In this document: one piece after another, positions 6,854-49,120 of the stretch
How the letters are laid out: each line of letters opens with the position of its first letter
How positions within the stretch are numbered: the first letter of the stretch is position 1
DNA from: Deltaproteobacteria bacterium
GTDB taxonomy: Bacteria > Myxococcota_A > Polyangia > HGW-17
Length of the DNA: 64,000 nt
Direction of reading: 5' to 3'
Assembly: GCA_027858615.1 (NCBI GenBank)
Contig: JAQICJ010000292.1
Location: forward strand, 623-64,622
The notes under the pieces: model-generated
What the model saw: the letters and a program-made list of their open reading frames with translations, nothing else
Databases searched by the model: none
Told to the model about the DNA's origin: nothing
Made by a program: the position numbers and the translations under genes

Positions 6854-8140
6854 TCAACTCCTGTTGTTATTATTGTTATTATTATTGGGTTTTTTATTTG
6901 TTTTGTTTTTCGGATCCGATTTTTTTTCTTTTTGGTTTTTAGATCGGAAATCCTGATATTCATCAACAGTAAAGGTAATTGTTTCTTTGTCTCCGTCTTT
7001 AAGTCTTACTTTAATGATTTCCTTGAGAATATTGGACTCAATAACCCTGCCTCTACCTTTGGGAGTATTGATGCTTTTGCCTTCACGGGGATAATTGCGG
7101 GAATGCTTTTTATAAAATTCATATTCGTAGGAAAGACAACATTTAAGCCGTCCGCATTGTCCGGAAACATTTTGGGGATTGAGAACCAGGTTCTGCTTTT
7201 TAGCCATGCGAATGGAAACAGGCACGAATTTATGCAAGTGGCAGGCACAGCATAAGGAACGGCCGCATACTCCGATTCCCCCGCATACCTTGGAGTCGTC
7301 TCTTACTCCCATCTGCCTCATTTCAATTCTCACCGAAAAGCGGGAAGCAAGGGTTCTTACCAGTTTCCTGAAATCTACTCTGTGATCAGAGGTGAAGTAA
7401 AAAAGCAGTTTGTCTGCAGTATGCAGCATATGGACATGAAAAAGTTTCATTTCCAAACCGTATTTTTCAATTTTTTGTCTGGCGAAGAGATCAGCTTCTC
7501 TTTCAAGTATTCGATGTTTCTTTTCTATTTCAATGTCTTTATCTGTGGCTGGCCGCAGAAATTTACGAGGCAGCTTTTTCTGACTCCAGGTTTTGTATTC
7601 GGATCTTTGAAGGGCGCTGCCGATAAAAATACCTTTTTCAGTGTCCACGATAATTTTATCACCTTTTTCATAAACAGTGTCACATTGAGGAAACCAACTG
7701 ACCTTGCGGGGGATTCCCCAAACCAAAAGCGTCCATATATCGAGTCTGGTTTTTCCTTCAGGTCTTGTTTTGCTGTGGTAATTGGAGTAGAGATCATCTC
7801 CCCATGGATCAACATCGGTGTAGGACTTGGGAAATTGATAACTTTCGATTTTTTCCAGAGGCAGTTTTTCAAATTGTCCCGTGGAATCGTCATGGCCGTA
7901 ATTTACAATTTCAACTTTTTCAGTTGAATGTTCCGAAGAATACCTGTTTCCGTCTATAGTTACTTCAAAATTCAAGGATTTGCTGGAATTGAGAAAATTT
8001 CTCTTGTTTCTTTTGACTGGAGCACTCTTGTTATATTTTTTCTGAGAACCATGTTTCTTTTTTTTATCGCTGCTTCTGCTGTGACAAGACTTTTTCTGCT
8101 TATCTTTGCAGGAGTTGCGATTGTTTTTATCTGATTTCAT
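6854..8140 (-). CDS. PSP1 C-terminal domain protein (YaaT / RicT-like), with a Lys/Ser-rich N-terminal extension and a poly-Asn C-terminal tail.
   Basis: Cys-rich signature VCGGIGVCGRSLCCACHL...GQCGRLKCCLSYEYEFY. It overlaps upstream holB by 4 bp, which is the conserved holB-yaaT synteny. Confidence 0.75.
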   Translation of the reverse strand: MKSDKNNRNSCKDKQKKSCHSRSSDKKKKHGSQKKYNKSAPVKRNKRNFLNSSKSLNFEVTIDGNRYSSEHSTEKVEIVNYGHDDSTGQFEKLPLEKIESYQFPKSYTDVDPWGDDLYSNYHSKTRPEGKTRLDIWTLLVWGIPRKVSWFPQCDTVYEKGDKIIVDTEKGIFIGSALQRSEYKTWSQKKLPRKFLRPATDKDIEIEKKHRILEREADLFARQKIEKYGLEMKLFHVHMLHTADKLLFYFTSDHRVDFRKLVRTLASRFSVRIEMRQMGVRDDSKVCGGIGVCGRSLCCACHLHKFVPVSIRMAKKQNLVLNPQNVSGQCGRLKCCLSYEYEFYKKHSRNYPREGKSINTPKGRGRVIESNILKEIIKVRLKDGDKETITFTVDEYQDFRSKNQKEKKSDPKNKTNKKPNNNNNNNNRS

Positions 8141-9090
8141 CTTCTTCTCATTTCAAGGAAAAGGTGTTCGAAAATTAAGCCTTTATTAATGTTGCCTTCC
8201 AGATCATATTTTGATTGCCTCAGCAAAGCAAGCCATTTAACTGTATCAAAATTTCGCACCGGTTTTCCTTTAAACTGTCTTTCTTTGCCAGTTTTTAACA
8301 GATTGATTTCAAAAAGAGAAAGAAATTGACTAAGCAGTTCTCTGTCTTGATGGGACAATTTATCAGCCAAATTCAAAATGGAGACCAGGCTGCCGTTCAA
8401 AACAGTTTCAGTTGCTTGATCTGCCATAGAAATCAAACCATTGTAATCTTGAGAAGTCAAATACTTTAAAGCTCTGGAAATTCTGCCTCCGCTGATTTCA
8501 GCAATTTTCTGGAGGTCTTCTGGTTTTTTTTCGGAAAAAGATCGGGAAAGGGAAGTAAAAATATCATTTTCACTCAGTGGGGAAAATCGATAACTTTGAC
8601 ATCTTGATCTTATTGTAATGGGTAGCCTGTGTGGTGAAACTGCAATCAGAAAGAAAAAAACTCCATCCGGCGGTTCTTCAAGAGTTTTCAGCAGCGCGTT
8701 GGCAGCACCCCTGGTCATTTGTTCGGCTGGATCAATAATTATGACCAAAGAGTTAGATTCATAAGAACCCGATTTGAGTCTTCTTTCAAGTTGACGGACT
8801 GCTTCTATCTTGATAAAAGAAGTAGGGTTTTTCACTCCCCATTCGAGGTCAATGAAAATGAGATCGGGATGGGTGCGGTGTTCTATTCTTTTTGAAATAT
8901 TGTCAGCATTTTGTTGTCCATGGGACAAAATCATCCTGGAAAAATTAAGAGCAATGGTTTTTTTCCCTATACCTTCTGGCCCTGAAAACAATACACTATG
9001 GGGGAAACGATTCTGAATCCAGGAAGATTTCAAGCTGGAGATCACTCTTTTGTGTCCGATAATATCTGAAAAATAATCGCTCGAATTCAT
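8137..9090 (-). CDS. holB: DNA polymerase III delta-prime subunit (AAA+ clamp-loader subunit).
   Basis: Walker A-like HSVLFSGPEGIGKKTIA, an SRC-like motif (TIRSRCQSY), ~317 aa, and yaaT immediately downstream. Confidence 0.8.
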   Translation of the reverse strand: MNSSDYFSDIIGHKRVISSLKSSWIQNRFPHSVLFSGPEGIGKKTIALNFSRMILSHGQQNADNISKRIEHRTHPDLIFIDLEWGVKNPTSFIKIEAVRQLERRLKSGSYESNSLVIIIDPAEQMTRGAANALLKTLEEPPDGVFFFLIAVSPHRLPITIRSRCQSYRFSPLSENDIFTSLSRSFSEKKPEDLQKIAEISGGRISRALKYLTSQDYNGLISMADQATETVLNGSLVSILNLADKLSHQDRELLSQFLSLFEINLLKTGKERQFKGKPVRNFDTVKWLALLRQSKYDLEGNINKGLIFEHLFLEMRRR

Positions 9091-9480
9091 TTTGAATTAA
9101 TTATGTTAGCCTTTCTCAATGCAAATAAATATGTAAACATGGAATTAACCGAGGATAACCCGCCTAATAATTAGCAAGTTTAATAAAATTTAGCAAGATC
9201 GACTATTTTTTCTTGAAATATCTCCAACTTCTTTTTATATTTCATCCACCAGATATTTTTTTGTTTTTTTCTTGTTTGTTTTCAAATCCCCTTAACAAGG
9301 GTTTTACAAATAGTTTATTTGGTTAGTTTTGCTTATTATTACAATCAGTTGTAAATATTTTTATTTTTAAATTTGTTTTTTGACGATCATTGTTTACCAT
9401 GATCTTCTAAATTAGATGTTCAAGAATTTTCTGGGAAAAAAAGATCTTTTCATATAAAACCGGCTATTAAGGAGTCCAAT

Positions 9481-11211
9481 ATGCTGTCAACCTTTAAAAG
9501 AGTAGTCATGTTTCTGACAATTGCTTCCTTCAGTTTTTCGGGGGCAGTTTTTGCTCAGAAAAAGAAAGATGAGCTTACTTTTGAAGCTGAAGACGTAACA
9601 AAAATCAAGAAATCCAAAAAAATGGAAAGGGCGGAACGGTTTTACAAAAAGGCTCTTTCTCCCACCAGTACAAATCCTCTGGTTTATTTTCAGAGTGCCA
9701 CCATCTATTTCAAACAGGTAGTGGCCAAGGACAATCCCGATGACAGTCCTGAAATCAAGCAGAAAGCACAGTTTTACATGGGGAAGTGCCTTTATCACAT
9801 GGGTTATCATTCAGCTTCCAAAAACTATTTCGAAAAAGTAGTTAATCAGGGTGAATCCCATCCATTTTACAAACTTACTTTGAAATGGCTGGTTTCTTTG
9901 CAGAAAAAAATGCCCGAATCTGCTGGCATTTTGCCTTTGATTGGTAAATACAAAACAGAATATCTTGAATCAAGAGCTCTGCGTCCATTCAAATCCCAAC
10001 TTCTCTATTATCTTGGAAAATTCAACTATAATCAGGGTGAATTGAAAAAGGCTCTTCCCTTTTTCAGGCAGATTCCTTCAGGTTCTATCTACTTCATGAA
10101 GGGCAAAATCTTTCAGGGAATCACTTTGGTAAGATTCGGTCGACCGGTAAAAGCAATCAAGTCTTTTAACGCCATCATTAAATTTGCCAAGAAAAATCCA
10201 AATTTCAAAAATATTCTGGAATATGTTGAGTTGGCCAACCTTTCTCTGGCACGTGTTTATTATCAGGCTGGACGTGTTGCAGTTGGACGTTTTGGTCAAA
10301 CCAAAAAGAAAAAGTTTGCCAAATTGGCCGAAAAATATCTCAGACTTTCCATTACTTTTTATGAAAAAGTTCAAACCAAAAGTTTCAATTGGCCCCAGAC
10401 CCTGTTTGAAGAATCATGGGCCTATTTCATTCTTGATGCCATGTTGAGACCTGTTTTCAAAAAGGACTACGGCGGATATCAGAAAGCCCTCGGTAATATT
10501 CATACTCTGAATGCTCCTTTCTTTGAAAATTTTTTCTTCCCGGAATCATTGATTTTGCGCGGAGTTATCTACTTCAATAATTGTCGTGTAAAAAGAGCTC
10601 AGGAATCCCTTGATGAATTCGGCAACAAGTATCCTCCCCTGCAAAAAGGCGTAAGATCAGTAGCTGACAAATACAGAGATGGTGAAGACGAAGATAACGA
10701 CTCCTATTATAATTATGTTCTTAAAATTAAAAACGAAAAGGCCGGATTGTCTCCAGAGCTTTCAAGACTTGTCAAATCAGCCCTGAACGACAGAACCTTT
10801 GAAAGAAAACTCGAGTTCATCACCGAGTTGAAACGCGAAATCAAACAACTTAAAGCTTCTGATAAATCTTGGCAAACATCTGATATTGCCCGTGAAATCA
10901 GAGAAGGTCTTGAGTTCCAGAAATCAATGGCTCAGGCTCAGGCGGGTAAAGCCGGTAGAATGCGTATCAGAAGACTAGATGATTACCTTACCAAAATGGT
11001 TTTGCAGTTTGGTGACGTTAAAATCGAAATCGACAACTTGAGACTTAAAAAAGTTTCATCCAAAGCACTCAACAAATCCCCCAAAGTAAAAGTAAGGGGA
11101 GTTACTGTTGACGACGAACACGTTATCTGGCCTTTCACAGGTGCCTACTGGAAAGATGAATTAGGTTATTATCGTTTCGTAGTTCGTTCCAGTTGTGGAA
11201 CAGGTAAATAA
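9481..11211 (+). CDS. Secreted TPR-like helical-repeat protein of unknown function, lysine-rich and basic.
   Basis: N-terminal signal peptide MLSTFKRVVMFLTIASFSFSGAVFA. TPR-like Y/F-x-x-G pattern. First gene of a 3-gene co-directional cluster. Confidence 0.6.
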   Translation: MLSTFKRVVMFLTIASFSFSGAVFAQKKKDELTFEAEDVTKIKKSKKMERAERFYKKALSPTSTNPLVYFQSATIYFKQVVAKDNPDDSPEIKQKAQFYMGKCLYHMGYHSASKNYFEKVVNQGESHPFYKLTLKWLVSLQKKMPESAGILPLIGKYKTEYLESRALRPFKSQLLYYLGKFNYNQGELKKALPFFRQIPSGSIYFMKGKIFQGITLVRFGRPVKAIKSFNAIIKFAKKNPNFKNILEYVELANLSLARVYYQAGRVAVGRFGQTKKKKFAKLAEKYLRLSITFYEKVQTKSFNWPQTLFEESWAYFILDAMLRPVFKKDYGGYQKALGNIHTLNAPFFENFFFPESLILRGVIYFNNCRVKRAQESLDEFGNKYPPLQKGVRSVADKYRDGEDEDNDSYYNYVLKIKNEKAGLSPELSRLVKSALNDRTFERKLEFITELKREIKQLKASDKSWQTSDIAREIREGLEFQKSMAQAQAGKAGRMRIRRLDDYLTKMVLQFGDVKIEIDNLRLKKVSSKALNKSPKVKVRGVTVDDEHVIWPFTGAYWKDELGYYRFVVRSSCGTGK

Positions 11212-11436
11212 ATTCAGTATTGTTCATGTATTTTTCAACTGTTAGCAGTTGAATGGTTTCCATCTCATAAATGGGTTATTGATTAAGCTTGAAGTTGAAT
11301 TGACTCGCGCTGGGTAATTTTGCAGACAGGGTAAATTCTATTTGCACAATTAATACAACCCGAATAAATTCAGAGCCTTCAACTAACCTTTGGGCAGGAA
11401 CCAATTAATTTAATTCCCGATAAATAACGAGGAAAT

Positions 11437-14400
11437 ATGATGTTTAGAAAAAGTTTAATCGCCTCTATTGCTATGGGCTTGATGTTTTCAAGTATGGTAA
11501 TGGCCCAGGAAAAAAGAGATATTGATTATAAGGCTGACAAAAGTCTTAATGTCTCCAAAAAAGAACTTATAGCCAAAGCCAAGAAAAAACGTGAGAAGGC
11601 AAAAAGTTCAATCAAATATGAAGATTTCATCCAAAGAGCCAAAAAGGTTCAAAATCTCAAACTGCCGATTTTGAAAAGTATTATCCTCAAGAGTAAAAGA
11701 CAGATTCAACTGCTTAGAAAAACAGACAAGCGCAGAGTTGAATATCTGTTCAGAATGGCTGATGCCTTTGTTCAACTTGAGCAGATTTACAAGTTCAAGT
11801 ATGGTGAAGCAACTGAAAAACTTACTACAGCAAAAGGAACAAAACGCAGACTTTGGGTAAGGCGCAAAGCTTTGTACCTGAAAAGGAAAAAACAATATCT
11901 GGTTACCGCACTTAAACTTTTGAACCGTATTTCTACCAATGAGGCCTATTCTGACTGGCACCGCATGGACGAAGTTCTTTTCAAGCTTGGTGATATTGCT
12001 CGTGAACTCGGATATCAAGATATTATGAAGCAAAAGTTCCAGGACTTGCTCAGTCAACATCCCAAATCCAAGTTTGTTCCCAATGTTTACCTTGCTTTTG
12101 CTGAATTTTATTTCAAGCAAGGACGTAAAGGCCTCAGTAAGGCGACTGCTTTTTATAAAAAAGTTGTTGCTTCCCGTGCCAAAGGAACAGGCATTTACTA
12201 CTATGCAAGAAGGATGCTCGGCTGGTGTTATTTCAACCTCCAGCGTTTCCCCCTTGCCCTTTCCAATTTCCTCTTTGTTGCCAAAAAAGCCAAAAGAGAC
12301 AGTCTTCGTGCTCAGGCTCGCAACGAAGTTGTCATGACATATTCTTACCAGGGTAACAGAAAGCAAGCCTACGACTTCTTCAAACACCAACTGGGCGCCA
12401 AATACGTACGGGATTTGTACATTAAATTGGCTCAGGAATATTTTGCCCAGGGTAATATGATCAACATGATCTGGGTATATCAAGACATGATTCGCAGATT
12501 CCCCCGTGATGTAAATCGTTGTGATTGGCATCGCCAGGTATATCTCGGATACAAACTTGATCAACGCGTAGAAGAGATGACCGAAGCTCTCAATAATCTT
12601 GTTGACACCATGGGCGATATGAAAAAACAATTTGGTGAAAAGAAAATGCAATACAAAGTTTGTCGTGACTTTGCCAAATCCGCCCTTTTTGATCAGGCCA
12701 AGCGCTGGTTTGCCAAAGTTGAAAAAGGCAAGGCCAAGACTGAAGATGAACAGAAAAAACTCATGATCAGTGCAGCCAAATTGTATCAGCGTTTCCTCGA
12801 ATATTTTCCTAAATCAGAAGATGTTTGGGAAATGAGAGGCGACTATGCTTATCTATTGTATAAACTTGCCGAAATGTATGAACAAGAAACCAACGGCCGC
12901 AACCAGGATGCAGTTAGAGCCCGTTACAAAGCTGGTTGTCAGGAATATACAAAACTACTCAAATGGGACAAAAAACCATCTAAATTGACCCAAGTCCAAT
13001 TCAAAAAGCAAAGACGACAGGTAGGTAATGACACCGTAGCCTGTTGGATGAAAGTACTGGCGGTTGACTTTAAAAAAGAAGAAAGTGGTCGCAGCCAAAA
13101 GGCAGAGGATTACAAAAAACGCCGTAATTGTCTGAAAGCCAAAAAGAAAATGGAAGATATGGGACGCAAATTCAGAAGAAGATGCCCCGAATTCAAGAAA
13201 AATCTTCCCATATCTGAAAACTTGAAAAAGGTTATTGAAGTCTTTGAACTTTATGTAAAATATGTTGATGGCGGCAAATATCTTTCCACCATCAAATATA
13301 ACAGGGCGATGATCTTCTATATGTATCGTCATTTCAAAGAAGCAATTCCCTTGTTTAAGGATGCGATTTTTACTACTTACGAAAATAATCCCGAAATGGC
13401 CTATCGAGCTGTCAACTTTTTAATGATAGCCTATGATGCCGAAGACAGATTTGGTGAAATGGTTGATACCATCTCTGAATTGTTGAAACCAAAATACAAC
13501 AAAATGTTCACTGTCAATGCCGAAGCTCGCAAGCTCCGCAAAGAACTGGTTAAAGCCAAATTGGAAAATCTGGAACTTCAGGTATCCAGGCTTGGTTCTG
13601 AAGGCAGATTCCAGGATGCAGGCGATCTGCTCATGAAGATGGCTAGCGAATACAAAGAATCTTCCACCACTGAAAAAGTTATCAAATACTACAACAGTGC
13701 TTACATCGCATATGAAAAGGCCGGACAGGTAGGACAGGCTATTCGTTCCCTCAAGGTAATGCAGCACTTTTTCGGTAGTGAAAAGAAAAACAAGATGATC
13801 ATTGATTCCAATCTTAAAATTGGTCGTCTTTTCGAAAAAATCGCCATGTTTGGTAATGCAGCAAAATCTTACGAAGATTTCTTTAAGCAATATCCCCGTG
13901 ATCCAGATGCTGTAAAAGCTGCCAGACGTTCAGTAAAATTATACTGGTGGTCAGGAGATGTCAGAAAAGCCGAGAAAAAAGCCAGAGAATTTGTCACCAA
14001 GCTCAATCGCATGGGTGCCAGAAAATTCAGAGGCGACATGGCTTCACTCTTTTTTATGCTCCATAAATTCTATCTTGGTAAAAATCAAAGCAGAGTTACC
14101 AAATATCTGCAATTTTTCATCAAGAACATGGCCAAAACACGTACAAATGATCTAATCATTCGTGCTTATTCAAAATTGGGCAAAATTTACTGGGACAGTT
14201 CCTGTCCGGTGGAAACAAAATATGGCGTTTGCATGAAGATAGTTTACGTCACGAAACGATCCAAAACTGACACCTGGAAGGAAGCAAAAACAAAATTTGT
14301 TCCCAGAAAAAGAAAAGTACTGCGTTTAGCCAAAAGTTACTTTAAAAAAGCTGTTAAATATTACAATGCTTGGCGTAGAAGGAAAAAGACTCTGGGATCA

Positions 14401-15021
14401 ACCGGTAAATTTGATAGCACTCAGCGTGTCAAAGAAGCATTGAATGCAGCTGCCATGGCCAAATTCCATCTCGCTGAAATTGAATATGAAGATATTATCA
14501 GTGCTGAAATTCCAATGATCAGTGCCAAAAAATTGCAAAAATCTATGTCTCAGGTTCAAAAATGGATGAAAAAGCAGACCAAACTCATGTTGAAAGCCAA
14601 AAAATTATATGAGCAGGTTGGTAACATCAAGCTGGGTAAAAGAGGCAGATCTAAATATAATGATTGGTATGTACCTGCAGCAGGCCGTTTTGGTGCCATC
14701 TTCAGGAATTTCCATACAAAGGTAAATAACATAAAATTTGGTAAGGCTTTCGATAAAAACATTACTGCCAAGCTCAAAATGAGAGATGTTTTTGCTGAAG
14801 CTACCGAAAAATTCGAAAAATTTGCCAAAAATGGTTTTATTGCATGTGTTAAAGCTGCTCAAAGAACCGGTCGCTATGATGAATGGCAGGAATTTTGTGA
14901 AAAGGAACTGGCAGAAATAAGAAATTCAGTCAGTCCTCTTGCCGATGAAGTCTGGTCAGAACCAAAATACACTAATTTGAAACCAGGAAAAGCAACTATT
15001 ATGACAGTTCCTGTCAGATAG
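11437..15021 (+). CDS. Large (1194 aa) secreted lysine-rich TPR-like protein of unknown function.
   Basis: Signal peptide MMFRKSLIASIAMGLMFSSMVMA. Abundant KK/KR runs and helical repeat texture. 226-bp gap from the previous gene and 17-bp gap to the next. Confidence 0.6.
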   Translation: MMFRKSLIASIAMGLMFSSMVMAQEKRDIDYKADKSLNVSKKELIAKAKKKREKAKSSIKYEDFIQRAKKVQNLKLPILKSIILKSKRQIQLLRKTDKRRVEYLFRMADAFVQLEQIYKFKYGEATEKLTTAKGTKRRLWVRRKALYLKRKKQYLVTALKLLNRISTNEAYSDWHRMDEVLFKLGDIARELGYQDIMKQKFQDLLSQHPKSKFVPNVYLAFAEFYFKQGRKGLSKATAFYKKVVASRAKGTGIYYYARRMLGWCYFNLQRFPLALSNFLFVAKKAKRDSLRAQARNEVVMTYSYQGNRKQAYDFFKHQLGAKYVRDLYIKLAQEYFAQGNMINMIWVYQDMIRRFPRDVNRCDWHRQVYLGYKLDQRVEEMTEALNNLVDTMGDMKKQFGEKKMQYKVCRDFAKSALFDQAKRWFAKVEKGKAKTEDEQKKLMISAAKLYQRFLEYFPKSEDVWEMRGDYAYLLYKLAEMYEQETNGRNQDAVRARYKAGCQEYTKLLKWDKKPSKLTQVQFKKQRRQVGNDTVACWMKVLAVDFKKEESGRSQKAEDYKKRRNCLKAKKKMEDMGRKFRRRCPEFKKNLPISENLKKVIEVFELYVKYVDGGKYLSTIKYNRAMIFYMYRHFKEAIPLFKDAIFTTYENNPEMAYRAVNFLMIAYDAEDRFGEMVDTISELLKPKYNKMFTVNAEARKLRKELVKAKLENLELQVSRLGSEGRFQDAGDLLMKMASEYKESSTTEKVIKYYNSAYIAYEKAGQVGQAIRSLKVMQHFFGSEKKNKMIIDSNLKIGRLFEKIAMFGNAAKSYEDFFKQYPRDPDAVKAARRSVKLYWWSGDVRKAEKKAREFVTKLNRMGARKFRGDMASLFFMLHKFYLGKNQSRVTKYLQFFIKNMAKTRTNDLIIRAYSKLGKIYWDSSCPVETKYGVCMKIVYVTKRSKTDTWKEAKTKFVPRKRKVLRLAKSYFKKAVKYYNAWRRRKKTLGSTGKFDSTQRVKEALNAAAMAKFHLAEIEYEDIISAEIPMISAKKLQKSMSQVQKWMKKQTKLMLKAKKLYEQVGNIKLGKRGRSKYNDWYVPAAGRFGAIFRNFHTKVNNIKFGKAFDKNITAKLKMRDVFAEATEKFEKFAKNGFIACVKAAQRTGRYDEWQEFCEKELAEIRNSVSPLADEVWSEPKYTNLKPGKATIMTVPVR

Positions 15022-15037
15022 AAAATCCGGAGGAAAA

Positions 15038-16849
15038 ATGAAAAGGTCTCTATTTTATAAAATATTTTTAATGATTTTCATATTTGCATCATGCAACGGT
15101 AAAGATGACGATACAACCGCGAACGGAAAGAATGGAAACGGCAAAACTACTTATGGTGGTGATCCTACCAAATTTGGCAATGTAGGAACAGGCAAAGATG
15201 CCAAGGGTCAAATCAGAAAAAGCCAAAAAGTTTCCAAATCAGTAGTCAGGAAATTCAAAGTTGTTCTCGATCAGTATTTCAAATTGGGACAAGATGGATA
15301 TCCTAAAGACGAATGTAAAAAGGTTGCCGAAAAATTTCTCAAACTCAGAGATGAAAAGGGTGGAGAAAAAATAGTCAGTTTTCTTTATAATGCCGGAGTA
15401 ACTTATTATCGTTGTGGCATGAAAGAAAAAGCAAAAGATATTTTCAAGCAGGTGCTTGCAAAAGACGAAACTTTCCCTCCCGCAAAAATAGCTATTCTGT
15501 TGATGGGTAAAGTTGACAACATCAAAGACCTGGTTAAGCATGAAAAAGAAATAATGAGGGATAATTATGCTCTACAGGATCCTGATGTAAATTACAATTT
15601 TGCCCTGGCTTATTATAAACTTTACGAAGCTACTTCCAAGAAAAAATATTTCAAACCTTTGTTGGAATATTTGCGTCGCTCCCTTGCTAATATCGGTAAA
15701 ATTAAAAATGATACCCTTGAAGCTGTACGCATCAGAATGAGCGTCTATGCTCTTGCTATTCAATTTTATCTTCGAGCCGATAAAAATCGCCATGCAGATA
15801 AAGATCTTGCCCGAATTTTTATTTCTTCGGCCAGAGATTATATCAGACAATGCACAGGAAGATCAGCCATCAAAGATCAGGAAGCAAGGCAAGCACTGGC
15901 AAAATATCATAATGCCAGAGGATTGTTTGAACTCTACAATAACGAAATTGGCAATGCCTTCCGTGAATTCAAAAAAGCAAAAGATTGTGTTAATGAAGAT
16001 TATTCAGCTAATTTAAACATAGGAATGCTTGGTATCAAATTTCGCCAGCCTGATCTTGCTATTAACAGTCTCGAACTTATCCTTAAAAAATTCCCCAATA
16101 GTGAGAGCAAATATGAAACTAATCTTGCCTTGGGTGTTGCCTACAAAGTTTATGGAATGGAATTGCAGGATATGGCAGACCATCAATTTGAGAACAAAGA
16201 AAAATTGGAGAATAAACTCAAAGCTTTGCAGGTTTATTACAAAGAATATAAAAAAGGTGTAAAAGTTCTCAAAAAAGCACTTTCAGGCAAGGTAAATATC
16301 AGAAAAATGCTGCGTTACGTGCAGCCTTATCTGGAAGAAGTTTTCAAAAAACCTTATCCCTACAAGGTTATTCTAAAAAAATTGAACAAAGGTGATCTCA
16401 CTATCAAGCAACTCAAAAAGGTAATTGGCAAAGCTGAGTCAATTCTTGAAAACAGTGCCAACAATCTGATACCTGAAAGAATTAAAGATATCGAAAAAAA
16501 TCTTACTTTGCTCAAAGATGCAAACAGTCTGCGTAACAAGGCAAAAGATTATTTCAATAAAGGTATCAGCACCTATGAAAAGGTCATGGCTCAAAACAAA
16601 AATGATTACCGAGCTAAATTCAATCTGGCAATTTTACTTTATAAAACAGGTGGTCTGGTTGGAGATATGAAGACAAATTTTGCAAGAGCAAGAAAATTGT
16701 TCATCGAAATAAATAAAAATCGTAAAGTTCCAAAAGATCTTAGAAAAATATCTCGTAAGAATTTCTCAGATATAAAATCAGCTTTGGTAAATCTTGAAAA
16801 AATAGAAGAAGAAAAGAAAAATCCTCCCAAAGCCAAAGGTAAAAAATAG
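15038..16849 (+). CDS. TPR-like lipoprotein, third gene of the secreted basic cluster.
   Basis: Lipobox ...IFIFASC followed by NGKDDD. TPR-like repeats such as AKIAILLMGKVDN and YNFALAYYKLYEA. Starts 17 bp after the previous stop, with GGAGG upstream. Confidence 0.6.
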   Translation: MKRSLFYKIFLMIFIFASCNGKDDDTTANGKNGNGKTTYGGDPTKFGNVGTGKDAKGQIRKSQKVSKSVVRKFKVVLDQYFKLGQDGYPKDECKKVAEKFLKLRDEKGGEKIVSFLYNAGVTYYRCGMKEKAKDIFKQVLAKDETFPPAKIAILLMGKVDNIKDLVKHEKEIMRDNYALQDPDVNYNFALAYYKLYEATSKKKYFKPLLEYLRRSLANIGKIKNDTLEAVRIRMSVYALAIQFYLRADKNRHADKDLARIFISSARDYIRQCTGRSAIKDQEARQALAKYHNARGLFELYNNEIGNAFREFKKAKDCVNEDYSANLNIGMLGIKFRQPDLAINSLELILKKFPNSESKYETNLALGVAYKVYGMELQDMADHQFENKEKLENKLKALQVYYKEYKKGVKVLKKALSGKVNIRKMLRYVQPYLEEVFKKPYPYKVILKKLNKGDLTIKQLKKVIGKAESILENSANNLIPERIKDIEKNLTLLKDANSLRNKAKDYFNKGISTYEKVMAQNKNDYRAKFNLAILLYKTGGLVGDMKTNFARARKLFIEINKNRKVPKDLRKISRKNFSDIKSALVNLEKIEEEKKNPPKAKGKK

Positions 16850-16974
16850 CCTGGACTTTTTTAATTTAGGTTACAATTTCAAAATTTAGTCAGGGGAATA
16901 GTCAAAGAATAATAATTGCTTAAAGAACTACAAGTTTACCGATTTGGCAGAAGGGTGATGAATTTTAAAGGGGT

Positions 16975-18231
16975 TCAGGAGGATTTATGTTTTTTGATAA
17001 GTCGAATAATGCATGAAGACATATTTTCGGCTATTTGTTGAAGACGGAAAACTTCGTCTTCAATGATGGATTCATCATCAACAATATAGACCACAACAAT
17101 AACCGGCCTGTCCTTGATGAATACAGTTGTTCCCAGAATAAAATCTGCCGGATCGCCTCCGAAAAGCATCATCAGTCTTTTATTAACCGGATTGGAAGAA
17201 GGTTTGCCGAAAAATGTCTTTTCCTGAAGAATGGTATTGATTAAGTGATCCCCTTCCTGGGGAATAATAATGCCTTCTATTCGTTGAGGAAGAAGCCCCA
17301 GACCGGTTCCTTCCCAGCCCATGAGGTAATCATCGATACAGGTAAGCAGGGAGCAGGTACGCATGGCACGAGAGCCGAACCGGTAGAAGACATTCGGAAG
17401 ATCATTTCTGGTCTGGACCATGCTGAGAATGGAGGAAATTTCATCGAGTTCAATATTTTGATAGGAGTCAAGTGAATGTGATTTCAGAGAAGAAAAACCG
17501 CTTTCATGCTCATCAAAATTTTTGGTATCTGCAAAATCACTCATGCCTTCGGTTTGAACCGGGATAATTTCACGATCGGCATTATTGATGATGGAATAGG
17601 TGAAATTTAGCAGTGGCAGTTTGGAAATCAATTCAGATTTCGCAAACTTGGGATCGTTAACAGGGCCGGTAAACGGATCAAACATTTCCAGTTCGGGTAT
17701 GAAATTGGCAGCTGGTTCCAGAGTATTTTCCGGCGAAATAAAATGAATTTTTTGCTGAGCAAGTTTTAAAATACGAGGATCAATTGTCTGATCATAAAAA
17801 AGATGAAGCAAATATTTGAAACGTATAAGGCAGATGACTTCTGGAATGCAATACTTGCCGATCTTTTCCCGGAGCAGTTCCAGGGAGGAATTGTCGGTTT
17901 CAGGTAAAATAAGCACATTACATGAATTGCCATCGATTTGTTGTGGAATTAGCTTGTGCTCAAGAGCAAAATCACCATCTATCAAAGCAGTTGCTTGAGT
18001 AGAAGGCTTGATGAAAGGGTTGACCAGACTTTCAAAACCGGAAAGATCCTGCAGATATAATTGAAGAGTGTTTTCAGAAATAAGATCAAGAGAAAGAAGA
18101 AAATATTCAACACTGTATTTGGAATTCCGATAAAGATTATAAATTGTGGATACCTGGGTAGGTAGTAAAATTCCATCTTGGGTGAGATTTTGGATAAGAG
18201 GAGGATATTTATCAGGTATTACGTTTTTCAT
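16975..18231 (-). CDS. Hypothetical protein; the N-terminal ~100 aa resemble a GspE/MshE-type N-terminal (T2SSE_N-like) domain.
   Basis: Weak resemblance of ...SVEYFLLSLDLISENTLQLYLQDLSGFESLVNP to T2SSE_N domains. No ATPase motifs. Confidence 0.35.
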   Translation of the reverse strand: MKNVIPDKYPPLIQNLTQDGILLPTQVSTIYNLYRNSKYSVEYFLLSLDLISENTLQLYLQDLSGFESLVNPFIKPSTQATALIDGDFALEHKLIPQQIDGNSCNVLILPETDNSSLELLREKIGKYCIPEVICLIRFKYLLHLFYDQTIDPRILKLAQQKIHFISPENTLEPAANFIPELEMFDPFTGPVNDPKFAKSELISKLPLLNFTYSIINNADREIIPVQTEGMSDFADTKNFDEHESGFSSLKSHSLDSYQNIELDEISSILSMVQTRNDLPNVFYRFGSRAMRTCSLLTCIDDYLMGWEGTGLGLLPQRIEGIIIPQEGDHLINTILQEKTFFGKPSSNPVNKRLMMLFGGDPADFILGTTVFIKDRPVIVVVYIVDDESIIEDEVFRLQQIAENMSSCIIRLIKKHKSS

Positions 18232-18242
18232 GCTGAATATTC

Positions 18243-19517
18243 CTAATTGCGGGGATCACTCAAAGGAAGAAGATCCTTTTTTTGTTGGAGCAGTATTCTT
18301 CTGACTTCTCCTGCCAGATAAAAGCTTCCACAGACAATTGTAATTGTATCAGATTTTAAATTATTGAGAAGGGTTTGGAGATCGTTGTTGAATAATTTGG
18401 TGTGTGCACCCCATCCATCCAGATAATCTTTCAATATATTTTCGGGAACAGCATTGGAATTATTAAAGTTAGTCAGGTAAAAAGTCTTGGCAAGAGGAAG
18501 CAAAGGCTGGTAAAAATTTTGATAATCTTTATCTGACATCATTCCGGTAATAATATTAACAGGGGGAGAACAACTATTTTTGATATTAAAAGCAAGTTCT
18601 TGTGCAGCTTGGGGATTGTGAGCTCCATCAAGAATGAAATTTTCGATTATTTCGAAACGACCGGGCCAATTATAATTGGAAAAAGCTGTTTTAATTATTG
18701 GTGAATTTAGTGGTTTTTGCAGAATAATTCTGGCAGCGGCAAGGGCTGATTCGACCAGATAAAATTTGTTACCACCGGAAAATGGCAATGTTTGCAGGAA
18801 CAAGGGCGGATCATTTTTGTACTTAAATTGGTATATTTGATCAAGTTTGCACAGGTAATAATCCTCACCGGCAACAACAGGAAGGCCGCCTCTGGCTGTG
18901 CTGTATTTCAGCAGTTGCTTGCGAATCATTGGGACAGTTCTGGGGATGAGTACCGGTACCCCGGGTTTGACTATTCCTGATTTTTCCCAGGTGATTCTAC
19001 TGGTTGAGGCAGTAAGAAAGGCCTGGTGATCGGTGGAGACACTTGTAATAATAGCCAGAACCGAGTTGCACAGATTGGTGGAATCAAGACGACCACCAAG
19101 CCCGGCTTCGAAAATTGCCAGGTCTATCTTCTGATTGTTAAAATACTGATGCGCTAGAGCAGTTGTGGTTTCAAAAAAGGAAAGATGAGTATCAAGGTTG
19201 GCCAGTTTGTTTAAGAGATGCAAAATCTGGGTGTCTTTAATATTGTGTCCGTTGACTTTAATTCTTTCGCGATAATTGGTGAGATGGGGAGATGTGAACA
19301 GTCCGGTTTTGTAACCATGATGGCGCAGAATTGACTCGAGCAGGGCAGCGGTTGTGCCTTTACCGTTGGTGCCGGCAATTTGTACTGCAGGATAGGAAAG
19401 GTGGGGGTTGCCAAGTTCATCAAGCCCCAGGCTCATTTGTACCAGATCGTATTTAATTCCAGCTTTGCGAAGGTTGTAAAGATGATTCAACCCCTCGGAG
19501 AGATTGTGGAATCTCAT
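18243..19517 (-). CDS. folC: Bifunctional folylpolyglutamate synthase / dihydrofolate synthase (Mur-ligase family).
   Basis: P-loop AVQIAGTNGKGTTAALLESIL and ...TSPHLTNYRERIKVNG. Length 424 aa. Confidence 0.85.
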   Translation of the reverse strand: MRFHNLSEGLNHLYNLRKAGIKYDLVQMSLGLDELGNPHLSYPAVQIAGTNGKGTTAALLESILRHHGYKTGLFTSPHLTNYRERIKVNGHNIKDTQILHLLNKLANLDTHLSFFETTTALAHQYFNNQKIDLAIFEAGLGGRLDSTNLCNSVLAIITSVSTDHQAFLTASTSRITWEKSGIVKPGVPVLIPRTVPMIRKQLLKYSTARGGLPVVAGEDYYLCKLDQIYQFKYKNDPPLFLQTLPFSGGNKFYLVESALAAARIILQKPLNSPIIKTAFSNYNWPGRFEIIENFILDGAHNPQAAQELAFNIKNSCSPPVNIITGMMSDKDYQNFYQPLLPLAKTFYLTNFNNSNAVPENILKDYLDGWGAHTKLFNNDLQTLLNNLKSDTITIVCGSFYLAGEVRRILLQQKKDLLPLSDPRN

Positions 19518-19519
19518 GG

Positions 19520-20155
19520 TTAGAATTTTTCTTTCATGTCCAGAAATTCGAGAAATTCGAGATATCGACCTTCTTCAGCTATGAGAAAACCTTCTTGTTT
19601 GGGTAAAACAAGCTTGGCTTCAGTGAGTTTGTCAATGATAGAAGCAACTTTGCCTAGGGGAAAACCGACAAAAGCAGATAATTGTTTCAAGTTTACGGGA
19701 ACCATAATCCCACTGGGTTTTTTGATACCTTCTTCTATGGAAAGATAATTTAGAGCTTTGACAACCCGGTGGGTTTTGTCTTCGAGGAGCAGCGTTTCAA
19801 TTTGAATATTGGAGCGATAAAGCCGCTTGGCCAGACTTTGCATTACCCGAATGGCAATATTGCTTTCATTTTTGATCATTGAGTTGAAGGTTTGCTGATC
19901 AAAAACCATGATTTTGGATGGTTCAATAACTGTAGCGGTAGCTGAACGGGATCGATTAAGAAGCAGGGACATTTCACCGAAAAAACTCCCCTTGGGAATA
20001 TCTGCCAGGATAAAGTTTTTATTGGCAATTTTTCGGGAAATTTGTACGACCCCTTCTCTGATAACGAAAAGTTCTTTGCCGTTGCTTCCTTCTTCAAAAA
20101 GGATAGTGCCTGCCGGAAATTCTCTCAGATATAGATTTTGAATATTCTTTTCCAT
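19520..20155 (-). CDS. Crp/Fnr-family cyclic-nucleotide-binding transcriptional regulator.
   Basis: cNMP-binding beta-roll (FPAGTILFEEGSNGKELFVIREGVVQISRK ... FFGEMSLLLNRSRSATATVIE) followed by a C-terminal HTH-like segment. Confidence 0.75.
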   Translation of the reverse strand: MEKNIQNLYLREFPAGTILFEEGSNGKELFVIREGVVQISRKIANKNFILADIPKGSFFGEMSLLLNRSRSATATVIEPSKIMVFDQQTFNSMIKNESNIAIRVMQSLAKRLYRSNIQIETLLLEDKTHRVVKALNYLSIEEGIKKPSGIMVPVNLKQLSAFVGFPLGKVASIIDKLTEAKLVLPKQEGFLIAEEGRYLEFLEFLDMKEKF

Positions 20156-20413
20156 ACTAATTCATACCATTTATTTTGGTTTTTGTCATGGAGCATGTAT
20201 CAATTTTACAATTGAAAAGATCTATTGATTTTTATATTTGAAAATATAAAAACACTATGATTGTAAAGTTTTATAATTACTACAATTTATAAAAGTAAAT
20301 AATAATTGTTATTAAAGTTAAAAATGTTATCATCATTGTAATTCCCGGGGATTATTTCCCGGCAAGGTGATAATTTGTCCACTAAAGGTCATTTTCAACC
20401 CATGCTGGTTTTC

Positions 20414-20442
20414 TTTGTAAACTTTAGATAAAAGTTTGCAAA
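20414..20442. promoter_or_regulatory. Near-perfect inverted repeat TTTGTAAACTTT-N5-AAAGTTTGCAAA in the 455-bp AT-rich region between the Crp/Fnr-like gene and rsmD. Candidate Crp/Fnr-type operator.
   Basis: Seen in the sequence: 12-bp arms with one mismatch. The half-sites resemble TTGAT/TGTGA-class dimer sites. Confidence 0.4.
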
Positions 20443-20502
20443 TATTGTAAAATCAAGGCTGTATTTTGTTCAACCTGCTTGAACTTGGCCGTTATTTGCT
20501 TT

Positions 20503-20518
20503 CAGGTCAAATGACCTG
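20503..20518. promoter_or_regulatory. Perfect 16-bp palindrome CAGGTCAAATGACCTG, a second candidate operator in the same intergenic region.
   Basis: Seen in the sequence: 7-bp arms with a 2-bp centre, ~90 bp upstream of rsmD. Confidence 0.35.
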
Positions 20519-20610
20519 TTTTCTGCTTGACCCGATGGCAATGAACATAAAGATAATAAATTTGTTACTGCCTTATTGTCTTGATCATGTCATCATCCTA
20601 GAGGATTACT

Positions 20611-21168
20611 TTGTTATCTATCACTGGTGGTAGTTTTAAAAGTAGAAAACTCTTCACTCCCAAAACAAATTCAATAAGACCAACTCCATCTATAGTCAGA
20701 AAGGGAATCTTTGATGTTATAGGCCATTTTTGGGAAGGGGGTCGGATTCTTGATATTTTTGCAGGTACCGGAATTATGGGATTGGAAGCTTTGAGCAGAG
20801 GTTTTGAAAAGAGTGTTTTTATTGATAGTTCATCTGTTGCTGCCGGGATTATTTCCAGAAATATTGGTCTTTTAAATCTGAAAGACCGGACTGAAATCTA
20901 CAAAATAGAATTTTCCCGCGGGTTGGAATTATTAAATAAAGATGACCAGAAATTTGATTTGATTTATCTGGATCCACCTTACAAACAGGTAAATTTAATT
21001 AATTCAACCTTGGAATTAATCTGGAAATACAGACTTGTCAAAGACAATGGAGTTATTTTGGCTGAACACAGTTCACAGAATAAAGCTCCGAAAAGTAAAG
21101 TTAAAAATCTTCAATTAAAAAGTTCCAAAGTTTGGGGCGAAACAGTGGTTGGTTTTTATGGGTTTTAA
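20611..21168 (+). CDS. rsmD: 16S rRNA (guanine966-N2)-methyltransferase.
   Basis: ...RPTPSIVRKGIFDVIG...ILDIFAGTGIMGLEALSRG...DLIYLDPPY (DPPY motif). Conserved rsmD-coaD pairing. Confidence 0.85.
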   Translation: MLSITGGSFKSRKLFTPKTNSIRPTPSIVRKGIFDVIGHFWEGGRILDIFAGTGIMGLEALSRGFEKSVFIDSSSVAAGIISRNIGLLNLKDRTEIYKIEFSRGLELLNKDDQKFDLIYLDPPYKQVNLINSTLELIWKYRLVKDNGVILAEHSSQNKAPKSKVKNLQLKSSKVWGETVVGFYGF

Positions 21169-21655
21169 AACAGCAGTGTATCCGGGGTCATTTGATCCTG
21201 TAACCATGGGACATATAGATATTATCCTGCGAGGACTGGAAGTATTTGACAAAATTATCGTTGCGGTGGCCAACAATACCACCAAAACTCCACTTTTTTC
21301 TGTTGAGGAGAGAGTAGAACTCATAAAAAATTCTGTAAAAGATTATCAAGGGGTTGTGGTTACCGGTTTTCAAGGATTACTGGTTGATTACCTGGAAAAA
21401 GTTAATGTCCAGGTAATTTTGAGGGGGCTGAGGGCTATTTCAGATTTTGAATACGAGTTTCAGATAGCCAATATGAATGCTAGACTCAACCCGGATATCG
21501 AAACTGTATTTTTGATGACCTCAGAAAAATATTTCTACATTAGTTCTTCTGTTATCAAAGAAGTTGCCCGCTTTGGGGGTAATATTTCGGAATTGGTTCC
21601 CATTCCGGTTGAAGAAGCTTTAAAAACAAAGTTTTCTCCTGATCTTTTAACCTGA
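21149..21655 (+). CDS. coaD: Phosphopantetheine adenylyltransferase.
   Basis: AVYPGSFDPVTMGHIDII (H/TxGH nucleotidyltransferase motif). The start is probably the ATG at 21158. It overlaps the rsmD stop. Confidence 0.9.
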   Translation: MVFMGFKTAVYPGSFDPVTMGHIDIILRGLEVFDKIIVAVANNTTKTPLFSVEERVELIKNSVKDYQGVVVTGFQGLLVDYLEKVNVQVILRGLRAISDFEYEFQIANMNARLNPDIETVFLMTSEKYFYISSSVIKEVARFGGNISELVPIPVEEALKTKFSPDLLT

Positions 21656-21738
21656 TTTATCAGTTCAGGTTTTTCAAGTTAAGGACACACCTTGTAAACT
21701 CAAATGGTTTACGGGTTTTAATTGCAATATTCTCCAAT

Positions 21739-21757
21739 TATCCTGGATTATCCAGGA
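21739..21757. terminator. Hairpin ATCCTGGA-TTA-TCCAGGAT downstream of coaD with T-rich flanking sequence. Candidate terminator or operator.
   Basis: Seen in the sequence: 8-bp perfect stem and 3-nt loop, ~85 bp after the coaD stop. Confidence 0.35.
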
Positions 21758-21922
21758 TGAAAAACAAATTTTTCTCTGGTTTTTCGGGATTTTCTTTTCC
21801 AATAAAAATCAGGGTATAACTCAATTTTTTTCATGTATTTTCCGAAGTAAAAAAAGTTGTATCAATATCAACTCTTTTGTTTTGACTTATGGAAAATACA
21901 GTAATTGTACAGGATTTAAAAT

Positions 21923-23137
21923 ATGCAAGTTGCTCACAGAATTCGATTTGTTCCAGATTCTCCTACTTTGGCCATAACCGCTAAAAGTAAACAGATGATT
22001 TCAGAAGGAAAAGATGTCATCAGTCTTTCTATTGGAGAACCGGATTTTCCTACTCCCAAACACATAATTGAAGCTGCCAAAAGAGCTCTGGACAAGGGAG
22101 CTACCAAATATACTCCGGCTGCTGGCATTCCAGAATTAAGAAAAGCTGTTTCCAACAAGATAAGTGCTGATTACGGAATTGATACCATTACTCCGGACCA
22201 TGTAATTATTTCATCCGGGGCAAAACACAGTCTTTATAATGCGATGATGGCAGTAATTAATCCCGGTGATGAAGTCATTATTCCTGCTCCTTACTGGGTT
22301 TCTTATCCGGTAATGGTAACTCTGGCTTCAGGTATTCCCGTATTTGTTCCCACCACCCTTGAAGAAAATTTTATTCTCACCCCTGAAAAATTGAGAGCAG
22401 CCATTACTCGCAGAACGAAAATGGTGATTCTTAATAATCCAAGTAATCCAACCGGAGCTGTTTACAGAAAATCGCAAATAAAAGCACTGCTGAATGTTAT
22501 TCTTGATTATCCCAACATCATGGTTCTCTCAGATGATATTTATCGTCTGCTTATTTACGGAAATGCAAATTTTCACAGTATCGCATCATTTGGAGAATTG
22601 GCCCGCAAAAGAACTATTGTAATCGACGGGGTTTCCAAGGCCTATTCAATGACGGGATGGAGAATAGGTTTTTCAGTTGCCAGACGCAGAGTTACCAGAG
22701 CTATGGCTCATATTCAGAGTCACTCCACTTCAAATCCGGCGGCAGTATCCCAATTCGCTGCCCTTAAAGCATTGACAGGCACACAGGAGCCCATCAATTT
22801 TATGAGGGAGAAATTCAATTCCCGCCGTAAATTCATGATAAAAAATCTGTCAACTTTGGAAAGTCTGGAATTCAGTCATCCCAAGGGTGCTTTTTATGTG
22901 ATGCCCAGGGTCAGTAAATTACTTGGCAAAATCACACCCAAAGGCGATCTTCTGCGTACTGATGTAGATGTATCCCACTATTTTCTGGAAAAAGCTTATG
23001 TTGGAACTGTACCCGGTACTCCCTTTGGTCTGCCTTCCCATATCAGGTTGAGTTATGCTCTCAAAATGGAAAAATTGAAAAAAGCAGTGGACAGAATTGC
23101 CGAAGCAATTTTAGATCTCAGAGAGCCTGGAGTATAA
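21923..23137 (+). CDS. Aspartate / aromatic aminotransferase (class I PLP aminotransferase).
   Basis: ...SLSIGEPDFPTPKHI...YTPAAGIPELRKA...SKAYSMTGWRIGF (PLP-lysine context). Length 404 aa. Confidence 0.85.
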   Translation: MQVAHRIRFVPDSPTLAITAKSKQMISEGKDVISLSIGEPDFPTPKHIIEAAKRALDKGATKYTPAAGIPELRKAVSNKISADYGIDTITPDHVIISSGAKHSLYNAMMAVINPGDEVIIPAPYWVSYPVMVTLASGIPVFVPTTLEENFILTPEKLRAAITRRTKMVILNNPSNPTGAVYRKSQIKALLNVILDYPNIMVLSDDIYRLLIYGNANFHSIASFGELARKRTIVIDGVSKAYSMTGWRIGFSVARRRVTRAMAHIQSHSTSNPAAVSQFAALKALTGTQEPINFMREKFNSRRKFMIKNLSTLESLEFSHPKGAFYVMPRVSKLLGKITPKGDLLRTDVDVSHYFLEKAYVGTVPGTPFGLPSHIRLSYALKMEKLKKAVDRIAEAILDLREPGV

Positions 23138-48632: not shown

Positions 48633-48644
48633 GTTTAACTACCA

Positions 48645-49088: not shown

Positions 49089-49120
49089 TTCCTTAACAGG
49101 AAAATTCGTTCGAATTTTTA

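Follow-up and report, generated by a model that had tools for sequence, protein, structure and literature searches.

Within a 64,000-nucleotide stretch of a Deltaproteobacteria bacterium assembly (GenBank GCA_027858615.1, contig JAQICJ010000292.1, positions 623 to 64,622; hereafter the window), three adjacent genes encode exported tetratricopeptide repeat (TPR) proteins that are deposited as "hypothetical protein" (MDA3864798.1 to MDA3864800.1). We read these open reading frames (ORF1, ORF2, and ORF3; Table 1) as a divergent gltC-gltD-gltE operon of an uncultured low-GC lineage of Polyangia (Myxococcota), belonging to an Agl-Glt-type envelope-spanning machine, and place the probability of this reading at about 0.8. 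That the triad is the periplasmic scaffold of a Glt-type motor-coupled machine is highly probable. The evidence consists of the homology of each protein, the linkage of the C, D, and E genes, the homology of a giant protein encoded elsewhere in the window, the export signals, and purifying selection, while protein-protein contacts are transferred by homology from Myxococcus xanthus genetics (PMC3169522) and an AlphaFold-based model (PMC11761067). A preliminary description of this DNA had been unable to match the cluster to any named system; it can now be matched to the gltC-gltD-gltE module of the Agl-Glt/Nfs family.

That description had reported three co-directional, lysine-rich, exported TPR proteins with a lipobox on the third and an AT-rich leader in front, and the ORFs, their signals, isoelectric points (pI) of 9.8–10.0, and the GC content all bear this out. 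It had given the two gaps as 226 and 17 bp; they are indeed short, but measure 225 nt (ORF1 to ORF2, 11212–11436) and 16 nt (ORF2 to ORF3). Ribosome-binding sites (AAGGAG, GAGGA, and GGAGG) are found just 5' of the starts of ORF1, ORF2, and ORF3, respectively, the first of them 8 nt before the start codon. Export signals were judged by inspection, by a hydrophobicity/Prosite-type rule, and by family-wide conservation. ORF1 opens with MLSTFKR, 17 hydrophobic residues, and VFA/QKKK (the slash marks the predicted cleavage site), which is a Sec-type signal; inspection and the rule show no lipobox and no transmembrane segment in this protein. The N-terminus of ORF2 runs from MMFRK to VMA/QEKR, with a basic n-region and a hydrophobic core of ~17 residues as in ORF1, and that of ORF3 reads MKRSLFYK-IFLMIFIFAS-C19, with the lipobox IFASC. 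The rule-based scan finds no internal transmembrane-like segment in ORF1, ORF2, or ORF3. Across the C, D, and E families assembled in the locus scan described below, the N-terminal hydrophobic segment is kept in 64/66, 70/78, and 62/69 proteins, and 52 of the 69 E proteins carry a lipobox-like motif. A Pfam scan of the three proteins returns TPR repeats only, no enzymatic domain is found in them by Pfam or NCBIfam, and the AlphaFold2 models of ORF2 and ORF3 are all-helical (mean predicted local distance difference test of 80.9 and 79.5), in keeping with the earlier view of helical-repeat proteins that have no enzymatic motif.

The most direct assignment is that of ORF1. The NCBIfam profile NF033756 (gliding_GltC) matches it with E = 4.3e-68 and 230.5 bits, and residues 27–572 cover positions 99–619 of the 622 in the profile. 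By this match ORF1 is a GltC-family homologue, not an equivalog. A C-type ORF lies directly 5' of D in 66 of 78 D loci, and the ratio of nonsynonymous to synonymous substitution rates (dN/dS) of ORF1 against its counterpart in the nearest relative, locus L006, is 0.052. By analogy with M. xanthus, the protein is predicted to connect an outer-membrane platform to GltD. In the Myxococcaceae locus L001, a 671-aa ORF directly 5' of D was considered as the GltC gene and rejected on a null BLASTP result to ORF1; the true GltC-like gene there is a 504-aa ORF located one gene further upstream.

The assignment of ORF2 was made through position and a chain of homology. A search with this protein returned 60 detectable homologues, nearly all of 1,050–1,220 aa and all from Myxococcota metagenome-assembled genomes (MAGs). 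Twelve are close (52–100% identity), a second tier (P0013–P0031) aligns at ~25% identity over 92–100% of the query with E values of 1e-85 to 1e-49, and the weakest matches include P0057, from a Myxococcaceae MAG (E = 1.6e-7). P0057 is the D protein of L001, where its gene is found between the GltC-model gene and genes matching the GltE, CglF/GltF, GltG, and CglE/GltH models, with two beta-barrel outer-membrane protein genes preceding the glt genes; BLASTP of ORF2 against this protein gives 2e-18 over 675 aa. The gene order in L003 is GltC, D, GltE, GltF, GltG, a TPR gene, and a 3,357-aa TPR giant, while L004 has GltC, D, and GltE and then another D paralogue accompanied by GltF and GltG. Because its homologues occupy the D position between GltC-positive genes and GltE/F/G-positive genes, we consider ORF2 a GltD (AgmU) homologue. 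The predicted architecture of ORF2, with long helices at residues 41–167, TPR arrays at 177–500 and 594–922, and C-terminal long helices at 959–1162, matches the architecture published for M. xanthus GltD, in which non-TPR helical ends flank TPR arrays (PMC11761067). The dN/dS against L006 is 0.051. As with GltD of M. xanthus, the protein is predicted to form a central periplasmic pillar. In L004 (region 16370–22554 of that locus, which comes from the same genome as L024, a Myxococcales MAG), the second D protein is 1144 aa long and encoded 3 kb after C-D-E; the arrangement hints at duplication of D and at C-D-E and D-F-G being able to act as modules that can come apart.

For ORF3, a family profile built from seven sequences of ~600 aa was searched against 1.8 billion representative proteins, and proteins of ~430–550 aa were found. 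The top distant matches of this search match the NCBIfam GltE profile NF033758 in 20 of 20 cases (best E = 4.6e-44), and hhalign of the ORF3 family against those 20 GltE proteins gives a probability of 100% at E = 3e-49. Colinearity holds throughout, from the lipoprotein signal to the C-terminal helix (query 3–594, template 16–442), and the sole gap faces ORF3 residues ~386–505. A further profile comparison with the GltE-position proteins of L001, L003, and L004 gives E = 2e-23. ORF3 is thus predicted, by these alignments, to be a TPR lipoprotein of the GltE (AglT) family that carries a helical insertion of ~120 aa not seen in the canonical GltE proteins compared; in the AlphaFold2 model the region is an extended helix (358–415), a hairpin (421–450), and a long helix (456–491), and residues 1–62 form a disordered linker. 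The architecture of the model is consistent with what has been published on GltE (PMC11761067). A reading of ORF3 as GltE with a C-terminal extension was rejected because the deeper profile comparison showed an internal insertion. The lipobox Cys19 is invariant in an eight-sequence alignment of the family, 69 of the 78 D loci have an E-type ORF after D, and the dN/dS against L006 is 0.070.

The linkage of the three genes was followed by scanning one genome per GTDB species with an eight-sequence D alignment, which yielded 80 loci, nearly all labelled Myxococcota, Polyangia, Myxococcales, or Deltaproteobacteria. Relatives were covered for 10 kb on each side of the triad and the source contig for 64 kb; ORF starts in the loci are longest-ORF calls, and the ORFs were classified with hidden Markov models (HMMs) for C, D, E, F, and G. 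The preliminary description had raised the prospect that the genes would turn out to be ordinary, unlinked TPR genes in relatives. Instead, C-D-E occur linked, in the same order and orientation, in every locus with enough flank: 66 C and 69 E genes adjoin the 78 D genes, and where a partner is missing the contig mostly ends. At least 50 loci outside the subfamily of ORF2 keep C-D-E-F-G together, and where D is ~25% identical to ORF2 the cluster goes on as F, G, a ~300-aa TPR gene, and a giant TPR ORF that runs past the locus end. The 12 loci with D 50–92% identical to ORF2 contain C-D-E only, among housekeeping genes. These form a monophyletic subfamily on a long branch, whose D proteins are 18–28% identical to all others, which have a median identity of 43% among themselves. 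The nearest relative (L006, a "Polyangia bacterium" MAG) is 92% identical in ORF2, and the four nearest (63–92%) share the order HEAT-repeat gene, ricT, holB, triad, 418-aa gene, and folC. The dN/dS values of 0.05–0.07, as low as or lower than those of neighboring genes, indicate strong purifying selection; therefore the triad genes are functional and not relics. The window has a GC content of 39%, very low for Myxococcota, and MAGs of the subfamily (L005–L019) span 37–65%.

These data bear on another account, in which three unrelated generic TPR proteins (CpoB/YbgF-, BamD-, or PilW-like) came together by chance or persist as a relic. Such an account could point to weak tol_pal_ybgF matches (TIGR02795, 23.7, 24.0, and 21.2 bits for ORF1, ORF2, and ORF3, all below the cutoff of 90.1), to weak matches with other TPR families, and to PDB sequence and fold searches that return only designed or generic TPR proteins, the Foldseek matches being generic TPR scaffolds at template-modeling (TM) scores below 0.35. 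It does not sit well with linkage maintained over 80 species-level loci, with colinear and full-length GltC and GltE profile matches, with the low dN/dS, or with a local gene order kept in the four relatives, and we accord it next to no probability. The earlier view of a co-directional unit of three exported TPR proteins holds; the unit is conserved, and its products most likely build an envelope-associated scaffold.

A further element of the machine appears to be encoded ~10 kb from the triad on the opposite strand. The window contains a giant TPR protein of 3719 aa that has no signal peptide, a pI of 4.69, and a net charge of -282. When compared with the 31 giant TPR ORFs encoded after gltG in loci of the sister clade, it is 25–28% identical over 1,100–1,800 aa, with BLASTP E values down to 1e-164. 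It is the positional homologue of GltI (AgmK), displaced and inverted relative to those loci, and is predicted to serve as the cytoplasmic scaffold of the same type of machine. The N-termini of the sister giants map to residues ~378–477 of the window giant, which thus has ~380–470 extra N-terminal residues; the idea that these represent a fusion with the ~300-aa TPR gene was rejected, as only weak generic TPR matches were found.

By homology, the M. xanthus model would give the following arrangement. ORF2, as GltD, would form an elongated central pillar in the periplasm under the outer membrane, and ORF3, as GltE, would bind its C-terminal domain. ORF1, as GltC, would contact the N-terminal GltD helix and dock the assembly to outer-membrane beta-barrels, serving as a scaffold for the periplasmic parts of GltA and GltB. 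GltG would wrap its linker around GltD, and the TonB-like domains of GltG and GltJ would dock on the N-terminal domain of GltD; these two proteins would in turn provide the link to the AglRQS proton-driven motor, while their cytoplasmic FHA and GYF domains would sit on the GltI giant, here the 3719-aa acidic protein. For the periplasmic part of the Agl-Glt machine, an experimental structure and biochemical support for its assembly have yet to be obtained (PMC11761067). The genes gltC, gltD, gltE, and gltG together with aglRQS have been defined as a co-evolving core complex (Luciano 2011, PMC3169522).

The closest known system is the Agl-Glt machinery of M. xanthus, with GltC (AgnA, MXAN_2541), GltD (AgmU, MXAN_4870), GltE (AglT, MXAN_4869), and GltI (AgmK, MXAN_4863). 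The likeness was established family by family: by HMM for GltC, by position and a homology chain for GltD, by profile-profile comparison for GltE, and by BLAST to positional homologues for GltI. Shared features are three exported TPR proteins, a lipoprotein GltE, a cytoplasmic giant that has no signal, and D-E adjacency, and the sizes are similar (576, 1194, 603, and 3719 aa here versus 673, 1191, 471, and 4132 aa in M. xanthus). The differences are also clear. In M. xanthus, gltC is in a separate cluster, G2, with gltK, gltB, and gltA, whereas C-D-E are contiguous here, and gltD-gltE are followed there by gltF, gltG, and gltH and then by gltI and gltJ, whereas here the triad has neither F nor G in its vicinity, and 10 kb separate it from the I-like gene, which is on the opposite strand. 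ORF2 is only ~18–23% identical to a Myxococcaceae D protein and has a Sec-type (AxA) signal, whereas mature M. xanthus GltD is numbered from Cys1 (PMC11761067). The triad proteins are also far more basic than their M. xanthus counterparts. In gene organization, the closest counterpart is the canonical Polyangia glt cluster (L020–L085), which runs C-D-E-F-G, a ~300-aa TPR gene, and the giant. The order and orientation of C-D-E, the pattern of signals and lipobox, and the homologous acidic giant are the same as in that cluster, but F, G, and the giant do not adjoin the triad in the subfamily, and its GltE is ~600 aa long with an insertion.

Other relatives of the system provide partial parallels. 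In the Nfs system (nfsA-H), which is powered by AglRQS and assembles the spore coat, GltC, GltD, and GltE have their closest paralogues (NfsC, NfsD, and NfsE), and the contiguous C-D-E arrangement here resembles the nfsC-D-E order. However, Nfs is a single A–H cluster without GltI, GltJ, or GltK (PMC3169522), while the triad has no adjoining A, B, F, G, or H gene, is flanked by housekeeping genes, and shares the window with a GltI-like giant. Core complexes of aglRQS with gltC, gltD, gltE, and gltG in Gamma- and Betaproteobacteria, Geobacter, and Fibrobacter likewise contain a C/D/E-type TPR unit (PMC3169522); these are single operons that include gltG and motor genes, neither of which is linked to the triad here. 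Such complexes also occur outside gliders, and they are a relevant analogy if the present lineage does not glide. The Campylobacter flagellar periplasmic scaffold (9hmf), SprE/PorW of the type IX secretion system, and CpoB/YbgF also represent periplasmic TPR proteins that position an inner-membrane proton-driven motor or couple it to outer-membrane components. They are among the bacterial Foldseek and HMM matches of the triad, but the similarity is of the generic TPR kind (TM scores of 0.12–0.23), and the triad is not a member of those families.

Several observations weigh against the assignment to a Glt machine. Similarity between TPR proteins inflates scores in general, and we have consequently put weight on colinear end-to-end alignments, model matches of neighboring genes, and synteny. 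The 230.5 bits of ORF1 are below the NF033756 equivalog cutoff of 450; GltC-position proteins of complete C-D-E-F-G clusters also score below it (218–332 bits), and therefore this cutoff separates close Myxococcia orthologues rather than the family. No match at E ≤ 1 to the NF033758 GltE profile is seen for ORF3 or for its 599-aa orthologue in L005, and no match to a curated GltD model is seen for ORF2 or for the D proteins of bona fide clusters. With more sensitive HMMs, trained on 58 F and 53 G sequences, we found no gltF or gltG match better than E ~1 in the six-frame translations of the window or of the 12 subfamily loci; in each of the 12, this covers the 10 kb on either side of the triad. 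A GltG profile search gave 774 matches and was saturated by canonical ones, which make up all of the 120 listed, and it says nothing for or against GltG in the MAG of the window. The window's only MotA/ExbB-type genes are tolQ-tolR, followed by a tolA-like gene and tolB; they were considered as the AglRQS motor and rejected because they match the TolQ, TolR, and TolB models. No GltA, GltB, GltH, GltK, or CglB was recognized among the window proteins, although no dedicated search for these was made. Finally, a study of related anaerobic Polyangia from Zodletone spring reports that most A-motility-specific genes are missing and that flagella and type IV pili are present (bioRxiv 10.1101/2021.07.06.451402). 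The spring is the source of one subfamily member's MAG, and the genomes of the published study differ from those analyzed here.

These points leave room for an alternative in which the triad and the GltI-like giant form part of a Glt-like core machine that has been reduced or repurposed and is not used for gliding. It may then serve polymer or spore-coat deposition, as Nfs does, or another motor-coupled envelope process. In these Polyangia, which have small genomes and a low GC content and are probably anaerobic, it would work with other or fewer partners. The detachment of the triad from gltF and gltG in 12/12 subfamily loci, as opposed to 50 or more loci with C-D-E-F-G, the long-branch monophyly of the subfamily, the ~120-aa insertion in GltE, and charges that are extreme within all three families are consistent with such a change. 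So are the occurrence of core complexes in non-gliders and the function of the Nfs paralogue in sporulation (Luciano 2011, PMC3169522), as well as the Zodletone report cited above. On the other hand, a GltI-like giant has been retained, which argues for the Glt type because Nfs has no GltI, GltJ, or GltK; the absence of F and G covers ~20–64 kb around the triad; and strong purifying selection says nothing about which function is kept. We regard this alternative as possible but unlikely. Its more radical form is improbable: that only the GltC-D-E scaffold and the GltI-like giant survive, with GltF, GltG, and the outer-membrane adhesion platform missing, and that the cationic triad with its enlarged GltE would make up a different motor-coupled or static envelope apparatus, tethered, for example, to anionic envelope polymers.

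The assignment of the triad to a Glt-type scaffold is thus separable from the question of output. By analogy with M. xanthus, surface gliding may be the output of the machine, for which we see slightly less than an even chance. The uncertainty arises because Glt paralogues serve sporulation (Nfs) or other roles and core complexes occur in non-gliders, because the subfamily has no gltF, gltG, or motor genes close to the triad, and because of the Zodletone report. The window also encodes a 588-aa acidic predicted lipoprotein (Table 1) that resembles CglB, the Cys-rich VWA/MIDAS outer-membrane adhesin of Agl-Glt, in outline only. Of its residues, 27 (4.6%) are Cys; a DxSxS MIDAS motif is located at residue 75 and an acidic double-disulfide repeat at the C-terminus. 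The protein matches VWA_2 weakly (E = 0.002) and the NCBIfam "MIDAS family adhesin" model with E = 3.7e-8.

The preliminary description had considered adhesion, binding of nucleic acid or polyanions, or a secretion-apparatus scaffold, and had connected the basic triad with the acidic giant through charge complementarity. The basicity is real. ORF1 has a pI of 9.82, a net charge of +45, and 12.5% Lys; the corresponding values are 10.0, +132, and 14.5% for ORF2 and 9.8, +56, and 16.1% for ORF3. The other window proteins pooled have 8.7% Lys; the window's proteins are collectively basic (pooled pI 9.06), and many housekeeping proteins exceed pI 9. Expressed per 100 aa, the net charges of +7.8, +11.1, and +9.3 rank 1/66, 3/78, and 1/69 in the C, D, and E families (medians of -0.8, +2.3, and +1.0), and amount to 4–5 times the window background of ~+2. 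GltD-type proteins are basic in general (median pI 9.06), and the GltD homologue of L004, a relative with 67% GC, carries +132 at pI 10.2. The explanation that Lys richness merely reflects low GC holds only in part: across 66–78 loci, GC and %Lys do not correlate (rho ~0), GC and net charge do so weakly (rho -0.37 for C and D), and within the subfamily the members with 37–41% GC are the most basic while those with 53–59% GC are also strongly basic. Family and lineage background each account for some of the basicity, and some of it is unexplained.

An unnamed, dedicated basic TPR assembly binding polyanions (nucleic acid, lipopolysaccharide, or teichoic-like polymers) or the acidic giant would find some footing in these numbers, with the triad at the basic extreme of its families and 4–5 times above its surroundings and the giant at -7.6 per 100 aa. 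Yet each of the three proteins is clearly homologous to a component of a named system, a GltD homologue is basic even at 67% GC, and the local proteome is basic as a whole, so that the charge is partly family and lineage background. Moreover, the giant lacks a signal peptide, and its homologue GltI is cytoplasmic, which would put the inner membrane between the giant and the triad. Direct electrostatic pairing of giant and triad is unlikely because the giant is across the inner membrane in the M. xanthus model. The acidity of the giant is in any case common to 31/31 homologues (median -7.4 per 100 aa) and hence a family-wide trait, whereas the strong basicity of the triad is enhanced in the subfamily lineage. 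We consider such an assembly very improbable, and nothing supports adhesion or binding of nucleic acid or polyanions as a primary role. The proposed tie between giant and triad stands as a functional one, through homology to GltI, and falls as far as charge complementarity was its reason.

The leader that separates holB from the triad is the divergent promoter region common to both. Its GC content is 26%, versus 39% for the window, and it contains a promoter-like TTGAAA-17-TATATT at 9213–9241. Promoter- and terminator-like sites show no enrichment over shuffled sequence. In comparison with L006, however, the leader is 91% identical in aligned columns, both hexamers included, and the promoter-like element sits in a fully conserved block. 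This conservation is above what dS of 0.57–0.86 in the adjacent genes would lead one to expect, which suggests a constrained regulatory region or a long 5' untranslated region. No Rfam family match is found in 8900–17200, which covers the leader, the triad, and the gaps, and neither triad gap contains a terminator-like hairpin. The 225-nt gap between ORF1 and ORF2, which also contains no ORF, is matched only in L006 (236 nt); in other subfamily members the C-D gaps are 3–86 nt by longest-ORF calls.

The assignment has consequences for surveys of motility. The triad falls below the curated GltC and GltE naming thresholds, and automated surveys would therefore score this lineage as being without A-motility genes. 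The survey of related anaerobic Polyangia cited above concluded that A-motility genes are mostly missing; a conserved, selected gltC-D-E together with a GltI-like giant in MAGs changes that no-A-motility inference. The subfamily also widens the known sequence range of the Agl-Glt periplasmic components. If the rest of the machine is absent, the lineage would offer a natural experiment on the C-D-E scaffold alone, and if the reduced or repurposed alternative is true, a natural "minimal or repurposed" Glt machine. The result is otherwise an ordinary one, in which a seemingly orphan cluster is assigned to a known system.

Table 1. Coordinates in the window of the gltC-D-E-like triad, its leader, the giant gene, and other features discussed in the text.
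Feature	Position	Strand	Remarks
gltC-like ORF1	9481–11211	+	576 aa
gltD (agmU)-like ORF2	11437–15021	+	1194 aa
gltE (aglT)-like ORF3	15038–16849	+	603 aa
AT-rich divergent intergenic leader	9091–9480		390 bp, between holB (-) and gltC-like gene (+)
gltI (agmK)-like giant acidic TPR gene	26925–38084	-	3719 aa, BLASTP to positional giants
tolQ, tolR, tolA-like (TonB_2 C-terminal domain), tolB cluster	47916–51417	+	
MIDAS/VWA Cys-rich predicted lipoprotein	53429–55195	+	588 aa, VFAGC lipobox, pI 4.2
418-aa acidic protein	16975–18231	-	convergent with gltE-like gene; faint MshEN-domain match, E = 0.028
308-aa exported Sel1-repeat protein	56033–56959	+	21% lysine
RicT/PSP1 homologue	6854–8140	-	unusual extensions

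The remaining features in Table 1 were noted in passing. TolQ of the window, at 216 bits, falls short of its cutoff of 221. An OmpA-type pal gene was not recognized directly after tolB, where an HU-like 105-aa ORF and a polytopic membrane protein are found instead. The gene for the 418-aa protein is kept at the same position in L006, L008, and L009 with a dN/dS of 0.067, and apart from the faint match listed it shows no other family match. The RicT/PSP1 homologue is unusual for its family in being extended at the N-terminus by ~160 Lys/Ser/Asn-rich residues and in ending with a poly-Asn tail. The 308-aa Sel1 protein contains six near-identical repeats that carry the motif CALKSG(S/A)GCFKLGDCY.

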